A stretch of 20,565 nucleotides of DNA from a virus. The notes below the pieces were generated by a model, which was given only the letters and a program-made list of their open reading frames with translations, was not told where the DNA came from and made no database searches. The position numbers were made by a program, and so were the translations under genes. Positions 2,281-8,645 of the stretch are shown in pieces (the stretch's first letter is position 1; every line of letters starts with the position of its first letter). The DNA lies in UHGV virus genome UHGV-0070025. One strand, written 5' to 3'.

Positions 2281-3365
2281 ATGCTTAATACTGTAAAAAT
2301 ATCCAGTTGTGAGTTAATCAACGCCGACTGCCTGGAATTTATCCGGTCGTTACCCGAAAATTCTGTTGACCTGATAGTCACGGACCCGCCGTACTTTAAA
2401 GTGAAGCCTGAGGGCTGGGATAACCAGTGGAAGGGCGACGATGATTACCTGAAGTGGCTGGACCAGTGTCTGGCGCAGTTCTGGCGGGTGCTGAAACCTG
2501 CCGGAAGTCTTTACCTGTTCTGTGGTCATCGCCTGGCATCTGATATCGAAATCATGATGCGTGAACGCTTCAGTGTGCTGAACCATATTATCTGGGCGAA
2601 GCCGTCCGGACGCTGGAACGGATGCAACAAGGAAAGGCTGCGGGCGTATTTCCGTGACTAAACAAGGAAGGGCGGGGGGCTTTTTCCCCCGCCACAGAGC
2701 GCATTCTGTTCGCGGAACATTATCAGGGGCCGTATCGTCCGAAAGATGCCGGGTATGCGGCGAAGGGCAGTGCACTGAAACAGCATGTGATGGCCCCGCT
2801 GATTTCTTACTTTCGTGATGCGCGCGCGGCCCTGGGGATAACGGCAAAACAGATTGCAGATGCCACAGGAAAGAAAAACATGGTGTCGCACTGGTTCAGT
2901 GCCAGTCAGTGGCAGCTACCGAATGAAAGCGATTATCTGAAATTACAGGCGCTGTTTGCCCGGGTGGCAGAAGAGAAGCATCGGCGTGGTGAACTGGAAA
3001 AGCTCCACCACCAGCTGGTGGATACGTATACCTCACTGAACCGGCAGTATGCGGAGCTGCTGAGTGAATATAAACATCTGCGGCGGTATTTTGGCGTGAC
3101 GGTGCAGGTGCCGTATACCGATGTGTGGACGCATAAACCGGTGCAGTTCTATCCCGGGAAACATCCGTGCGAAAAACCGGCAGAAATGCTGCAGCAGATA
3201 ATCAGCGCAAGTAGCCGTCCTGGTGATCTGGTTGCGGATTTTTTCATGGGGTCGGGTTCAACGGTAAAAGCGGCGATGGCACTGGGGCGTCGTGCGATTG
3301 GTGTTGAGCTGGAGACCGGACGTTTTGAGCAGACAGTCAGGGAAGTTCAGGATTTAATCGTTTGA
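2281..3365 (+). pseudogene. beta-class (DPPY...FxGxG) DNA N6-adenine/N4-cytosine methyltransferase, interrupted between the two halves
   Basis: N-terminal part (2281-2661, frame 1) carries motif IV LIVTDPPY. C-terminal part (frame 3, open from 2658, ORF-track start 2787, to 3365) carries motif I DFFMGSGST. Frame 1 stops at TAA 2659-2661; frame 3 has TGA at 2655-2657. The halves cannot be joined without a frame change. Confidence 0.75.
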
Positions 3366-3710: not shown

Positions 3711-3925
3711 CTCACAATTCAGACGGTTGACAGTTGTCTGTTTTGCGGGGAGTTTGTTAAAAGAAACTGGCATGGTGAATCCCCCTGTGCGGATGGGCAA
3801 TCAGCGAGTAGGTATATGGGATAATCGCGGATTCAGGTGCTGGTACTGAATTCACCGGGAGGCACCCGGCACCATGCAATGGCACATAGCGCCACTCTCC
3901 AGCCCCTCTCCGGAGGGGCTTTTCT
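3711..3925 (+). ncRNA. candidate structured small RNA, tandem unit A
   Basis: Begins with CTCACAATTCAG then TTGACA; shares conserved blocks with unit B (TTTGTTAAAA, GCATGGTGAATCCCCCTG, CACCGGGAGGCACCCGGCACCATG); ends in terminator GCCCCTC-tccg-GAGGGGC + TTTTCT (3902-3925). No convincing ORF. Confidence 0.35.
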
Positions 3926-4114
3926 GTGCCGGATACATCACAGTTTCTGGAACCTTAGGTACTACAGTATCAGTCAGGGTGCTATATTTTCAGATGTGAT
4001 GAAAGCCTGTCAGCAGGCAGGGCGTATCGGAAATGACCCAGTAGAGAAAACGTTGACTCAGATACCGGTGCTGAGTTACCGGGAAACCGGCATCACATGA
4101 CCGCTATCCTTCCA

Positions 4115-4178: not shown

Positions 4179-4412
4179 CTCACAATTCAGTAAGTTGACA
4201 GTTGCCTGTCAGACTGGGCATTTGTTAAAAAAATTTCGCATGGTGAATCCCCCTGAGCGGAGGGGCGACTGGTGACGGTATAATCTCTGATTATCAAAAC
4301 GAGAATGACGCGGGTTTAGTGGCACCGGGCTGAACTCACCGGGAGGCACCCGGCACCATGTGCATGATGATACAGATACGCGGCTTTAGCCCCTCTCCGG
4401 AGGGGTTTTCTT
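4179..4412 (+). ncRNA. candidate structured small RNA, tandem unit B (paralogue of unit A)
   Basis: Same block order as unit A, 468 bp downstream; contains a perfect TATAAT at 4279-4284; ends in terminator GCCCCTC-tccg-GAGGGG(T) + TTTTCTT (4389-4412). Confidence 0.35.
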
Positions 4413-4417
4413 GTGGG

Positions 4418-4447
4418 CAAAAAAAGCCCGCGCTGGGAGACGCGGGC
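4418..4447 (-). terminator. minus-strand intrinsic terminator, back-to-back with the unit B terminator
   Basis: On the minus strand: GCCCGCG-tctcccag-CGCGGGC followed by TTTTTTT (the plus-strand A-run at 4418-4425). Confidence 0.45.
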
Positions 4448-4868: not shown

Positions 4869-5072
4869 AAGACAGTCTGGCAGTGGGACTAAATGCACTG
4901 ACGCTGATGGATATTACCAAAAATGTAACGTATGGCGTTGAGATAGAAAGTCTGGCGCTGGAGATAAATGCACCGGCATCATCATAAAAAGTGAGCCAGT
5001 CAAATGGAAGGTATCGTTAAACTCACCGGTAGTGTCAGTGGGTCGTCTGAGACGCTTGCATGAGTTATCAGA

Positions 5073-5102
5073 GCCATCAGTAGTTAACTGGTGGCTTTTT
5101 TA
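5073..5102 (+). terminator. intrinsic terminator just upstream of the lysis cassette
   Basis: GCCATCAG-tagttaa-CTGGTGGC (one G.U pair) followed by TTTTTTATTGTTTT. Confidence 0.65.
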
Positions 5103-5136
5103 TTGTTTTCAGCTTCCGGATAACGGGAGACGGGGT

Positions 5137-5352
5137 ATGGACCAGATGGAAAAAATCACAACAGGTGTGTCATACACCACGTCAGCGGTGGGAACGGGCT
5201 ACTGGTTCCTGCAGTTGCTGGACAGGGTTTCCCCGTCTCAGTGGGCGGCAATAGGCGTGCTGGGGAGTCTGCTGTTTGGGCTGCTGACATATCTGACTAA
5301 CCTGTATTTCAAAATCAGAGAGGACCGTCGTAAGGCGGCACGGGGAGAGTAA
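5137..5352 (+). CDS. S: class II holin / pinholin (phage 21 S-like) with dual-start motif
   Basis: 71 aa from ATG 5137; GGGAGA RBS; begins MDQMEK (Met1 and Met4, as in S21 antiholin/holin pair); C-terminus [22 protein letters not shown] matches S21 as recalled. The ORF-track start at 5032 is an upstream in-frame extension. Confidence 0.85.
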
Positions 5353-5356
5353 TTCA

Positions 5357-5701
5357 ATGACTCAAAACTATGAACTGATTGTGAAAGGGATCCGCAATTT
5401 TGAGAATAAAGTTACGGTAACTTTAGCGTTACGGGACAAAAAACGCTTTGACGGTGAAATTTTTGACCTGGACATCTCGCTGGACCGTGTTGAAGGTGCT
5501 GCGCTGGAGTTTTATGAGGCAGCGGCCAGAAGGAGCATCAGACAGGTCTTCCTGGATGTCGCTGCCGGGTTATGTGAAGGGGATGAGCAGTCGCCGGAAA
5601 AGCGCCCCGTAATTTTAGAGGCGCAGAATGTGTGGATAACCTACAAAGGAAAGCTACCGGGAAGGATTACTGGTTCCCTGAAGACTCCGCCGAAATGGTA
5701 G
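5357..5701 (+). CDS. hypothetical protein (accessory gene inserted between holin and endolysin)
   Basis: 114 aa; GGGGAGAG RBS overlapping the holin stop (translational coupling); no transmembrane segment evident; no family recognised. Confidence 0.6.
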   Translation: MTQNYELIVKGIRNFENKVTVTLALRDKKRFDGEIFDLDISLDRVEGAALEFYEAAARRSIRQVFLDVAAGLCEGDEQSPEKRPVILEAQNVWITYKGKLPGRITGSLKTPPKW

Positions 5702-5939
5702 TTTTGCCAGCATAATTTTCTTCCAGCAATGCCGCCAGCCACTTGAAAGAATTTTGTTGTTCCTGGGACCATTTGGGGTTGCGTGATTCAAAATGAATGG
5801 ATGCCAGCGTTGGCAGCATTTGCTCCCTGGGAATTGATAAGGCCAGATGTGAAAATGCAACAGTGAGGGCATTTACATCATCCCGAAGCCTGGAAATGCA
5901 GTCGAGCAACTCCTGTAGAGAAATGGTGCTATTGTCCAT
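5667..5939 (-). CDS. hypothetical protein, convergent with and 3'-overlapping the preceding gene
   Basis: 90 aa on the minus strand; strong GAGGA RBS 6-7 nt upstream of ATG; 35-nt 3' overlap with the + strand ORF; no family recognised. Confidence 0.55.
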   Translation of the reverse strand: MDNSTISLQELLDCISRLRDDVNALTVAFSHLALSIPREQMLPTLASIHFESRNPKWSQEQQNSFKWLAALLEENYAGKTTISAESSGNQ

Positions 5940-6044
5940 AAATAATCCTCTTGATTGTCTTTACCTTTTCCCCGCCTGATTCAACAGGCCGGGACAGATA
6001 AACATATCCAGGGTTCAGAAACCGATAAATCCTGATAAATATCC

Positions 6045-6578
6045 ATGAACGCAAAAATCAAATACGGCCTGTCAGCTGCAGTTCTGGCGCTGATTGGAGC
6101 AGGCGCATCAGCTCCTCAGATACTTGACCAGTTTCTGGATGAAAAAGAAGGTAACCACACAACGGCATACCGCGATGGTTCCGGCATCTGGACCATCTGT
6201 CGGGGTGCCACGATGGTGGATGGAAAACCCGTTTTTCCCGGTATGAAACTGTCGAAGGAAAAATGCGACCAGGTCAACGCCATTGAGCGTGATAAGGCGC
6301 TGGCATGGGTGGAGCGCAATATTAAAGTACCACTGACCGAACCACAAAAAGCGGGTATCGCGTCATTTTGTCCCTATAACATTGGCCCCGGTAAGTGTTT
6401 TCCATCGACGTTTTATAAGCGGCTGAATGCTGGTGATCGTAAGGGCGCATGCGAGGCGATTCGCTGGTGGATAAAAGATGGTGGGCGCGATTGCCGCATA
6501 CGTTCAAATAACTGCTATGGACAGGTTATTCGTCGTGACCAAGAAAGCGCATTAGCCTGTTGGGGAATAGATCAGTGA
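6045..6578 (+). CDS. R: SAR endolysin (lysozyme, phage 21 R / RrrD-like)
   Basis: 177 aa; N-terminal Gly/Ala-rich weakly hydrophobic segment ([16 protein letters not shown]) typical of signal-anchor-release domains; catalytic-region motifs (EG..TAYRD..G.WTICRG) resemble T4-lysozyme-type phage lysozymes. Confidence 0.9.
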
Positions 6579-7042
6579 GCAGAGTCGCCGCGATTATTTA
6601 TGCTCTGGTTATCTGCATCATCGTCTGCCTGTCGTGGGCGGTCAATCATTACCGTGATAACGCCATCACCTACAAAGAACAGCGTGATAAAAAAGTCAGT
6701 GAGCTGAAGCAGCTGACCGCCACCATCGCTGACATGCAGCAGCGTCAGCGTGATGTTGCTGCGCTCGATGCAAAGTACTCGAGAGAATTAGCCAATGCGA
6801 AAGCTGAAAATGAAACTCTGCGCGCTGATGTTGCCGCTGGTCGTAAGCGCCTGCGGGTCAATGCCAGTTGCTCCGCAGCCGTGCGTGAAGCCACCGGACC
6901 CACCAGCGTGGATAATGCAACCAGCCCCAGACTGGCAGACACCGCTGAACGGGATTATTTCACCCTCAGAGAACGGTTGATGACGATGCAGAAGCAACTG
7001 GAAGGGGCACAGCTATACATTCGTGAGCAATGTCTCAGATAA
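6575..7042 (+). CDS. Rz: Rz inner-membrane spanin
   Basis: GTG start overlapping the endolysin stop; N-terminal transmembrane helix ([17 protein letters not shown]) then coiled-coil periplasmic domain; contains the embedded Rz1 frame. Confidence 0.85.
6795..6980 (+). CDS. Rz1: Rz1 outer-membrane lipoprotein spanin, embedded in the +1 frame of Rz
   Basis: 61 aa; lipobox LVVSAC; proline-rich mature part ([30 protein letters not shown]) nearly identical in pattern to lambda Rz1. Confidence 0.85.
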
Positions 7043-7197: not shown

Positions 7198-7464
7198 GTG
7201 AACGTAGAAAACCTAAGTAACGCACATTACATCTATAACGAGATGAAAGAGCTACAGCGACAGAAAGGTATACTGGAAAGTGGTGCAGGGCTTGGTGTGA
7301 CAATCCAGTCTGCCTATCAATATAGTGCTTTTCTTGAGGCCATACGCCCGCATGCAGTTGCTGAACTTAACAGCCGTATTGAGGAAAAGAAATCCGCGCT
7401 GGTTAATTTGGGTGCTTCCTTCTCTATATACGAGCATAATAAGGCGGGTTGGAAACCCGCCTAA
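7198..7464 (+). CDS. hypothetical small protein (uncertain)
   Basis: 88 aa from GTG (alternative ATG at 7243); weak RBS; the 3' end runs through the hairpin that serves as terminator for the convergent minus-strand gene. Confidence 0.3.
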   Translation: MNVENLSNAHYIYNEMKELQRQKGILESGAGLGVTIQSAYQYSAFLEAIRPHAVAELNSRIEEKKSALVNLGASFSIYEHNKAGWKPA

Positions 7465-7469
7465 AGCAC

Positions 7470-8009
7470 TTAGAAACTGCGTGGAGCTGTGGAAAGAATG
7501 GATGCCAGTTCTTCCTTCGATAAATCCCAGCTTCGATTTACAGCGTCAATTTTCTTAAACTCATCAAGCATTGCGTTATAGAGATGTTCTGTACGTGAAT
7601 GAGTATTGGCAATGGGCTGTTTCTGTTCGGGGAAGCGATCAATTTTCTGATATGCCTCAATGATACTGAAGTAATCGCATTCATTATTACCGTCGAAACC
7701 TGGGAGCTGAATTGCCCCATCATGTATTTTTAGATGATGGTCACGGACTAATTCTTTTTGCTCGTCATCACTAAGTTTCCTGAAAGCATTGGAAAGTCCG
7801 CGATACATATTCAAGACAGCAGTAACAAAATCACGATCTTCTTTACTTGGTTCGTCAACATCCAAATGTGAATATTCGGCCTTGATAACCCAATCATTAC
7901 CAGATGACACAGCATATTTAACAAGCTGTGGATCAATATCAGTTTCGATACCTAGGTGGATGGCAATGTCACATAACAAAATGGTATTGATTTTATCTTT
8001 AATATCCAT
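7470..8009 (-). CDS. hypothetical accessory protein, possibly YfbU-family (UPF0304)-like
   Basis: 179 aa; GAGGG RBS on minus strand; AT-richer than flanking phage genes; followed on the minus strand by hairpin GGCGGGTT/AACCCGCC (about 7444-7462) and a U-rich tail; YfbU resemblance is from memory of the E. coli protein and is unverified. Confidence 0.6.
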   Translation of the reverse strand: MDIKDKINTILLCDIAIHLGIETDIDPQLVKYAVSSGNDWVIKAEYSHLDVDEPSKEDRDFVTAVLNMYRGLSNAFRKLSDDEQKELVRDHHLKIHDGAIQLPGFDGNNECDYFSIIEAYQKIDRFPEQKQPIANTHSRTEHLYNAMLDEFKKIDAVNRSWDLSKEELASILSTAPRSF

Positions 8010-8498: not shown

Positions 8499-8645
8499 TA
8501 ACAGCTCCCATCTGCAGGGGAGGGGCGGGTCAAATCTCTGCAACCCTGGCTGTTCAGTACCGCCGCCTGACCTTTCCTCGCATCGCCGCAGGTTCGAAAA
8601 CTTTTTTTTGGAATGTGATTAAATGATTGATAGGTAAAACCGATT

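Follow-up and report, generated by a model that had tools for sequence, protein, structure and literature searches.

Organization of the lysis region

The window (the whole stretch of 20,565 nucleotides analysed here) represents the Q-to-tape-measure half of an E. coli lambdoid prophage, with the gene order DUF968, RusA, Q, methylase, three tRNAs, lysis genes, HNH, terminase and onward. A preliminary description of this DNA had drawn attention to two convergent open reading frames lying inside the lysis cassette, a plus-strand one of 114 aa and a minus-strand one of 90 aa, and had placed them between a pinholin and a SAR endolysin. We found both frames at the positions given there, and the flanking genes are as claimed, with a P21-type class II holin on one side and a SAR-like lysozyme and Rz with an embedded Rz1 on the other (Table 1). 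The ATG of the plus-strand gene lies 4 nt past the holin TAA and is preceded by GGAGAG, the minus-strand gene has the ribosome binding site AAGAGGA 6 nt before its ATG, and the two genes overlap tail to tail by 35 nt; the coupling to the holin stop, the strong RBS and the overlap can all be seen in the sequence.

It needs to be added how some of the gene boundaries were set. The mechanically delimited holin frame spans 5032-5352, and we placed the start of S, which carries the dual-start motif MDQM, according to the 216-nt annotation of the UTI89 homologue; its stop codon TAA occupies 5350-5352. For Rz we took the start that yields a 4-nt overlap with R, as is annotated in a related locus (L002). 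Lysozyme R has a Gly/Ala-rich, SAR-like N-terminus and the motif E-X8-D-X5-T, as read from the ORF translation.

Table 1. Coordinates of the features discussed; positions refer to the window unless another locus is named
Feature	Position	Strand	Remarks
N6/N4 DNA methylase, N-terminal domain half	2281-2661	+	PF01555
N6/N4 DNA methylase, C-terminal domain half	2787-3365	+	PF01555
STnc100 sRNA, first copy	3741-3931	+	RF02076; 130 bits
STnc100 sRNA, second copy	4209-4418	+	RF02076; 161 bits
P21-type class II holin (pinholin) S	5137..5352	+	71 aa; PF04971 (E 3.7e-32); phrog_9876 'holin'
ydfR	5357..5701	+	114 aa; ATG start; PF07041; phrog_406
90-aa gene	5667..5939	-	ATG start; phrog_2411 ('Ybl58'); convergent with ydfR
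Overlap of ydfR and 90-aa gene	5667-5701		tail to tail
Presence/absence module with 90-aa gene	~5697..5987		~290 bp; from alignment with phage vB_EcoS-640R1
RBS AAGAGGA	5946-5952	-	upstream of 90-aa gene
-10-like hexamer GACAAT	5954-5959	-	upstream of 90-aa gene
Lysozyme R (SAR-type endolysin)	6045..6578	+	177 aa; PF00959 (E 1.4e-24); phrog_7 'endolysin'
Rz i-spanin	6575..7042	+	PF03245 (E 1.6e-49); phrog_13
Rz1 o-spanin	6795-6980	+	embedded in Rz; ORF with lipobox ...VVSAC
Small gene behind Rz	7198-7464	+	88 aa; phrog_5415
YfbU-domain gene	7470-8009	-	179 aa; PF03887; phrog_6084
90-aa homologue, Serratia/Chimaeribacter loci	L009 5001-5282; L014 4001-4285; L016 4001-4270		between dinI and bssS
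63-aa ORF, Citrobacter freundii prophage	L010 5239-5430	-	overlaps 90-aa homologue tail to tail
S-ydfR-90-aa gene and following module, phiSTEC1575-Stx2k	L022 2165-3803		
Cassette with ISEc52, strain 2547	L006 1840-3009		

The plus-strand gene is a regular resident of the lysis cassette

The preliminary description recognised no family for either product. We found, however, that profile searches clearly assign the plus-strand gene to ydfR, a catalogued E. coli prophage family: its product scores 145.3 bits against PF07041 (DUF1327/YdfR; E 6.6e-43, profile positions 1-92 of 93), where the cut-off, the Pfam gathering score, is 25 bits, it matches phrog_406 end to end (E 1.3e-68), and homologous genes carry the RefSeq label 'YdfR family protein'. 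The 90-aa protein, in turn, is a full-length member of phrog_2411, named 'Ybl58' (E 5.5e-55, residues 1-90 on profile positions 1-90 of 90). Remote homology search thus supplied a Pfam family for the larger protein and nothing beyond phrog_2411 for the smaller one. The suggestion that neither is a lysis protein still stands, as both lack a transmembrane segment and a signal peptide (highest Kyte-Doolittle 19-residue means of 0.69 for YdfR, which is soluble, and 0.83 for the 90-aa protein), and neither matches a lysis-category PHROG or Pfam family.

It had also been assumed that S and R are normally contiguous. Nevertheless, the order holin-YdfR-lysozyme occurs in the Qin prophage of K-12 (holin-ydfR-rrrQ-rzpQ, with essD as the label of the holin in that record), in an EDL933 prophage, in UTI89, BL21 and other strains, and in phage vB_EcoS-640R1, while YdfR occurs in 101 of the 50,697 phage records, mainly those of Stx1a and Stx2c converting phages. 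DNA resembling ydfR is present in 4349 of 5426 complete E. coli genomes, at 8617 places and in up to 10 copies per genome, and the exact 114-aa sequence was found on 327 contigs in public data. S-YdfR-R is the usual order in E. coli lambdoid prophages and no exception, and ydfR is a regular resident of this type of cassette. It is the kind of ordinary conserved lysis-gene companion that, according to the preliminary description itself, would speak against a special cargo. At the same time YdfR, being present in ~80% of complete genomes, is among the most widespread uncharacterised E. coli prophage proteins.

The closest known counterpart is YdfR of K-12 Qin (UniProt P76160, DUF1327), which belongs to the same family and occupies the same position between a class II holin and the lysozyme rrrQ. 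The N-terminal domain of the window protein (approximately residues 1-69) is ~84% identical to it. The C-terminal 40 residues, which have a low-confidence fold, are highly conserved in sequence and unlike K-12 YdfR: the K-12 protein has 103 aa and lacks the ...RPVILEAQNVWITYKGKLPGRITGSLKTPP module, whereas window YdfR has this widely conserved C-terminal module. Among YdfR proteins we noted length variants of 103, 114, 116, 176 and 183 aa, all of which diverge directly past ...SLKTPP. The 176- and 183-aa forms have an additional helical module of ~60 aa (…DEQFAAFYDYCIEVTRRNFVKIFEEGKSLQ); its possible relationship to the 90-aa gene found in the same slot was considered, and the comparison revealed none.

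YdfR may act on RNase E rather than on lysis

A recent biochemical lead connects YdfR with RNase E. A 2026 study reported that residues 1-72 of K-12 YdfR are enough to produce two-hybrid signals with RNase E 1-597 as well as with RNase G, that Strep-YdfR co-purifies Rne 1-598 together with DNase-resistant nucleic acid, and that YdfR overproduction altered few transcripts in K-12 (PMC13232886). RNase E binding has been shown for the K-12 protein only, and in window YdfR the sequence of the domain is conserved. Because the interacting domain is so similar in the two proteins, we tentatively consider it most likely that window YdfR is a late protein which binds RNase E or RNA, ahead of a role in lysis timing, even if the assignment is far from secure. 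As an ordinary cytoplasmic passenger of class II holin/SAR-endolysin cassettes in E. coli lambdoid prophages, ydfR is probably co-transcribed and co-translated with S and R in the late operon. Judging from its K-12 homologue, its N-terminal three-strand-plus-helix domain would attach to the catalytic half of RNase E, and perhaps to RNA, and this binding may adjust RNA decay late in infection. Several small phage proteins bind RNase E, namely T4 Srd, phiKZ Dip and T7 gp0.7, and the reported target of Srd is the N-terminal half of the enzyme, as with K-12 YdfR.

On the other hand, YdfR might be a regulator of lysis, which influences its timing or phage release through the pinholin, the SAR endolysin or the envelope instead of through RNase E. 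Its position is fixed between S and R, with the 4-nt gap to S in the window and a 4-nt overlap of ydfR with rrrQ in K-12, and a genome-wide screen tied ydfR to envelope integrity (Paradis-Bleau 2014, as cited in PMC13232886). Accounts of the Mu and P1 lysis cassettes indicate, moreover, that such cassettes can hold extra regulators. However, YdfR has neither a membrane segment nor a signal peptide, whereas known antiholins and releasins are, to our knowledge, membrane proteins. Furthermore, many functional phages have the same S and R and do without ydfR (366 matches to the cassette versus 101 to YdfR), and the sole direct biochemical data implicate RNase E and RNA (PMC13232886). We thus consider direct involvement of YdfR in lysis control unlikely.

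The minus-strand gene alone is the insert

In phage vB_EcoS-640R1 the S-ydfR-R segment is more than 96% identical to that of the window, yet it is devoid of ~290 bp carrying the 90-aa gene. Homology stops directly past the YdfR codons ...SLKTPP and restarts at CCGG(G/A)ACAGATAAAC, ~55 nt before the start of R; the indel holds the entire 90-aa gene together with its RBS, and substitutes the last ydfR codons. The same module is missing from many other phages that are otherwise collinear, and G+C content is 45% in 5702-5985 versus 51% in the whole window. The preliminary description had regarded both genes as an insert. This holds for the minus-strand gene, which the indel identifies as a horizontally mobile accessory module, and not for ydfR, the regular resident.

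The arrangement seen in the window is already catalogued, being identical to annotated loci in more than 1000 sequenced genomes. Proteins of the phrog_2411/'Ybl58' type from UTI89 (WP_001351274.1) and BL21 (WP_000370546.1) are encoded by the same gene at the same location, between ydfR and R; the window protein is identical to the UTI89 copy and 80-97% identical to most other cassette copies, and its exact sequence was found on at least 1000 contigs. Altogether, the gene is present in 1221 of the 5426 complete E. coli genomes, at 1354 places. It is rare in isolated phages, with 3 of the 50,697 phage records, as compared to the 101 for YdfR.

The region just upstream of the start of the 90-aa gene is a site of recombination and insertion. 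In strain 2547 an ISEc52 element lies between this gene and R, and in phiSTEC1575-Stx2k the S-ydfR-90-aa gene segment is followed by a holin/holin/M15-peptidase module instead of the lysozyme gene.

The 90-aa gene has relatives away from ydfR

Homologues of the 90-aa gene were found in several settings. A copy of 72% nucleotide identity lies divergently from iha (an adhesin/siderophore receptor gene), amid IS remnants, in ~60 genomes. In the alignment it seems to retain decayed pieces of the beginning of R and of the end of ydfR, which suggests a relic of a lysis cassette whose sole intact ORF is the 90-aa homologue. Another copy, of 67% nucleotide identity, is located behind an autotransporter gene, mostly on plasmids, in ~30 genomes. 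Profile searches extended the family to Citrobacter, where a homologue of 55% identity lies antisense directly upstream of the holin gene of another lambdoid prophage, and to Serratia and Chimaeribacter. In the three loci examined from the latter (two of Serratia and one of Chimaeribacter) the homologue occupies the conserved chromosomal slot pyrC-dinI-X-bssS-solA, where X denotes the homologue. It stands alone in Sodalis and one further lineage. The Citrobacter, Serratia and Sodalis proteins match phrog_2411 as well. No conserved partner gene was found across the cassette, island, plasmid and chromosomal contexts of the family. Inspection by eye revealed a sigma-S-like extended -10 (CTGTATTTAA or CTGTAATTAA) upstream of the homologue in the two Serratia loci, and no LexA box upstream of the Serratia orthologues adjoining dinI.

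The Citrobacter freundii prophage offers one further detail. There, the 90-aa homologue is overlapped tail to tail by a 63-aa ORF that ends in ...KITGSLRAPIKL, similarly to the C-terminus of YdfR, RITGSLKTPPKW (a dodecapeptide, BLASTP E 0.01), while the remainder of this ORF is unrelated to YdfR and has no PHROG match. The dodecapeptide may reflect a residual tie of the 90-aa gene to the 3' end of ydfR, and the simplest reading may be common ancestry of the junction DNA.

ydfR and the 90-aa gene are very probably independent

The question arises whether ydfR and the 90-aa gene are passed on jointly as a single accessory system, for instance a toxin/antitoxin or defence/anti-defence pair or a lysis-timing switch; the preliminary description had seen in them a candidate for an undescribed two-component system and proposed a survey of whether the pair is always inherited together. 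At first glance, such a possibility seems attractive, as more than 1000 E. coli genomes have the genes side by side with the 35-nt overlap, S, ydfR and the 90-aa gene travel as a single block in phiSTEC1575-Stx2k with a different endolysin module behind them, and the ORF adjoining the 90-aa homologue in Citrobacter has the YdfR-like ending mentioned above. However, the distribution of the genes largely refutes it. The 8617 places with ydfR contrast with 1354 for the 90-aa gene, which means that ~85% of ydfR places are without it, and where ydfR is missing, in island, plasmid and Serratia chromosome contexts, members of the 90-aa family are still intact and evolve under purifying selection. In addition, convergent orientation precludes co-transcription as one operon, neither window protein has a PADLOC match at E<0.1, and the sole Pfam or NCBIfam match of either of them is DUF1327.

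The proposed system therefore fails on co-inheritance, operon structure and likeness to known systems: the genes are not inherited together, and homologues of the 90-aa gene stand alone elsewhere. We regard a joint system as very improbable, and there is no ground for following the pair up as such. The region very probably consists of two genes that are independent both functionally and evolutionarily, and we see no hint of a novel type of mechanism.

The 90-aa ORF is a real coding gene

We compared seven copies of the 90-aa gene, whose mutual nucleotide identity goes down to 65%. The annotated frame is the sole one that is free of stop codons in all seven, and the length remains steady at 89-90 aa at 65-72% nucleotide identity. 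Differences cluster at the third codon position (19/18/50 at positions 1, 2 and 3 between the window and locus L008, chi-square p = 1e-5), and pairwise dN/dS values (Nei-Gojobori) are 0.17-0.49. On the basis of these codon statistics we reject a shadow ORF, which the preliminary description had considered as a possible objection; the minus-strand ORF is a real coding gene under purifying selection.

A reading in which the ORF has no function, as a mere shadow or a relic, and the module works solely at the RNA level, if it works in any way, through antisense transcription that dampens read-through into R, is hardly credible. In its favour, the consensus scan described below found no promoter or terminator for the gene, the family has no Pfam domain, the gene is scarce in isolated phages, and several frameshifted or truncated copies exist in databases, but dN/dS, the third-position excess (p down to 1e-5), the single open frame and stable length in diverged copies, and the conservation of homologues at 30-35% identity in other genera all speak against such a reading.

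The 90-aa protein may be the product of a moron-like gene

The 90-aa protein is acidic (pI 4.95), and its AF2 model is all-helical, with four helices and a pLDDT of 70. The tail past residue 78 is variable among copies and has low pLDDT. Homology searches were of little help: no match to the family was found in Pfam even at E<10 (15 members searched), searches of NCBIfam, PADLOC and PDB sequences with the protein were all negative, and no informative fold emerged. An exhaustive HMMER search of 1.84 billion representatives yielded only 19 matches to the family, all of them small proteins or fragments of 36-97 aa, apart from a protein of 971 aa that was matched weakly and in multiple stretches. 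A literature search by protein accessions and by 'ybl58' retrieved no publication on this protein.

As to expression, a consensus scan of 4900-6300 reported no promoter, and no terminator for the 90-aa gene. A -10-like hexamer is nonetheless present upstream of the gene at a conserved position, reading GACAAT in the window, TACAAT in ET761, BL21 and ETEC-2265, and TATAAT in the iha-linked copy. Since the scan reported no promoter there, we can propose this hexamer only as a putative one.

One possible explanation, though a doubtful one, is that the gene is of the moron type, expressed from the prophage independently of the late operon, and that its product acts by protein binding. We infer this from the antisense orientation, the presence/absence polymorphism, purifying selection and the position-conserved hexamer, and also from retention of the gene in defective prophages and islands. 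The ~290-bp module is inserted antisense to the late operon, directly past the ...SLKTPP codons of ydfR, and the gene is kept by selection on its own. Its small, acidic, four-helix cytoplasmic product, which the prophage probably expresses from a weak, putative promoter belonging to the gene itself, would then probably bind a host protein and serve a lysogenic-conversion or regulatory function. The tail-to-tail overlap is best regarded as a mere by-product of the insertion junction, with a disordered C-terminal tail that reads into antisense ydfR until a stop is met; such ORF run-on is suggested by the variability and low model confidence of the tail.

The lambda morons bor and lom adjoin the lysis genes as well, and encode envelope proteins with roles in serum resistance or adhesion. 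Similarly to these, the 90-aa gene is small, lies beside the lysis cassette, antisense to or independent of the late operon, is variably present in collinear phages and is retained in defective prophages. Unlike Bor and Lom, its product is predicted to be cytoplasmic, and its promoter, at the -10-like hexamer, is a putative one, the consensus scan having reported neither a promoter nor a terminator.

A broader reading, which we consider rather improbable, joins two separate propositions: that phrog_2411/Ybl58 is an unrecognised class of stand-alone cytoplasmic regulators and that, independently, YdfR is a widespread late-phage modulator of RNase E. According to it, the 90-aa family could be chromosomal, at dinI-bssS, in Serratia and its relatives, and could have been captured repeatedly in E. 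coli by lambdoid prophages, the iha-adjacent pathogenicity island and autotransporter-bearing plasmids; the protein could be expressed in the lysogen and alter host physiology or phage susceptibility. What makes the family worth attention is that it is a small protein under purifying selection which travels with lysis cassettes, virulence islands and plasmids.

Other features of the window

A second convergent pair of small genes is located directly behind Rz, at the slot of lambda's bor. It comprises a plus-strand gene for an 88-aa protein (phrog_5415) with no Pfam match and a minus-strand gene for a 179-aa YfbU-domain protein; PADLOC gave no match for either. Upstream of the lysis genes, the N6/N4 DNA methylase is split into two ORFs corresponding to its N- and C-terminal domain halves, and it is probably a frameshifted pseudogene, because the UTI89 homologue is a single intact gene of 349 aa. 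Finally, two copies of the STnc100 sRNA, both scoring well above the gathering score of 47 bits, are located in an ORF-poor stretch of ~1 kb which extends from the tRNA cluster to the DUF1737 gene and corresponds to the stx slot of Stx phages.
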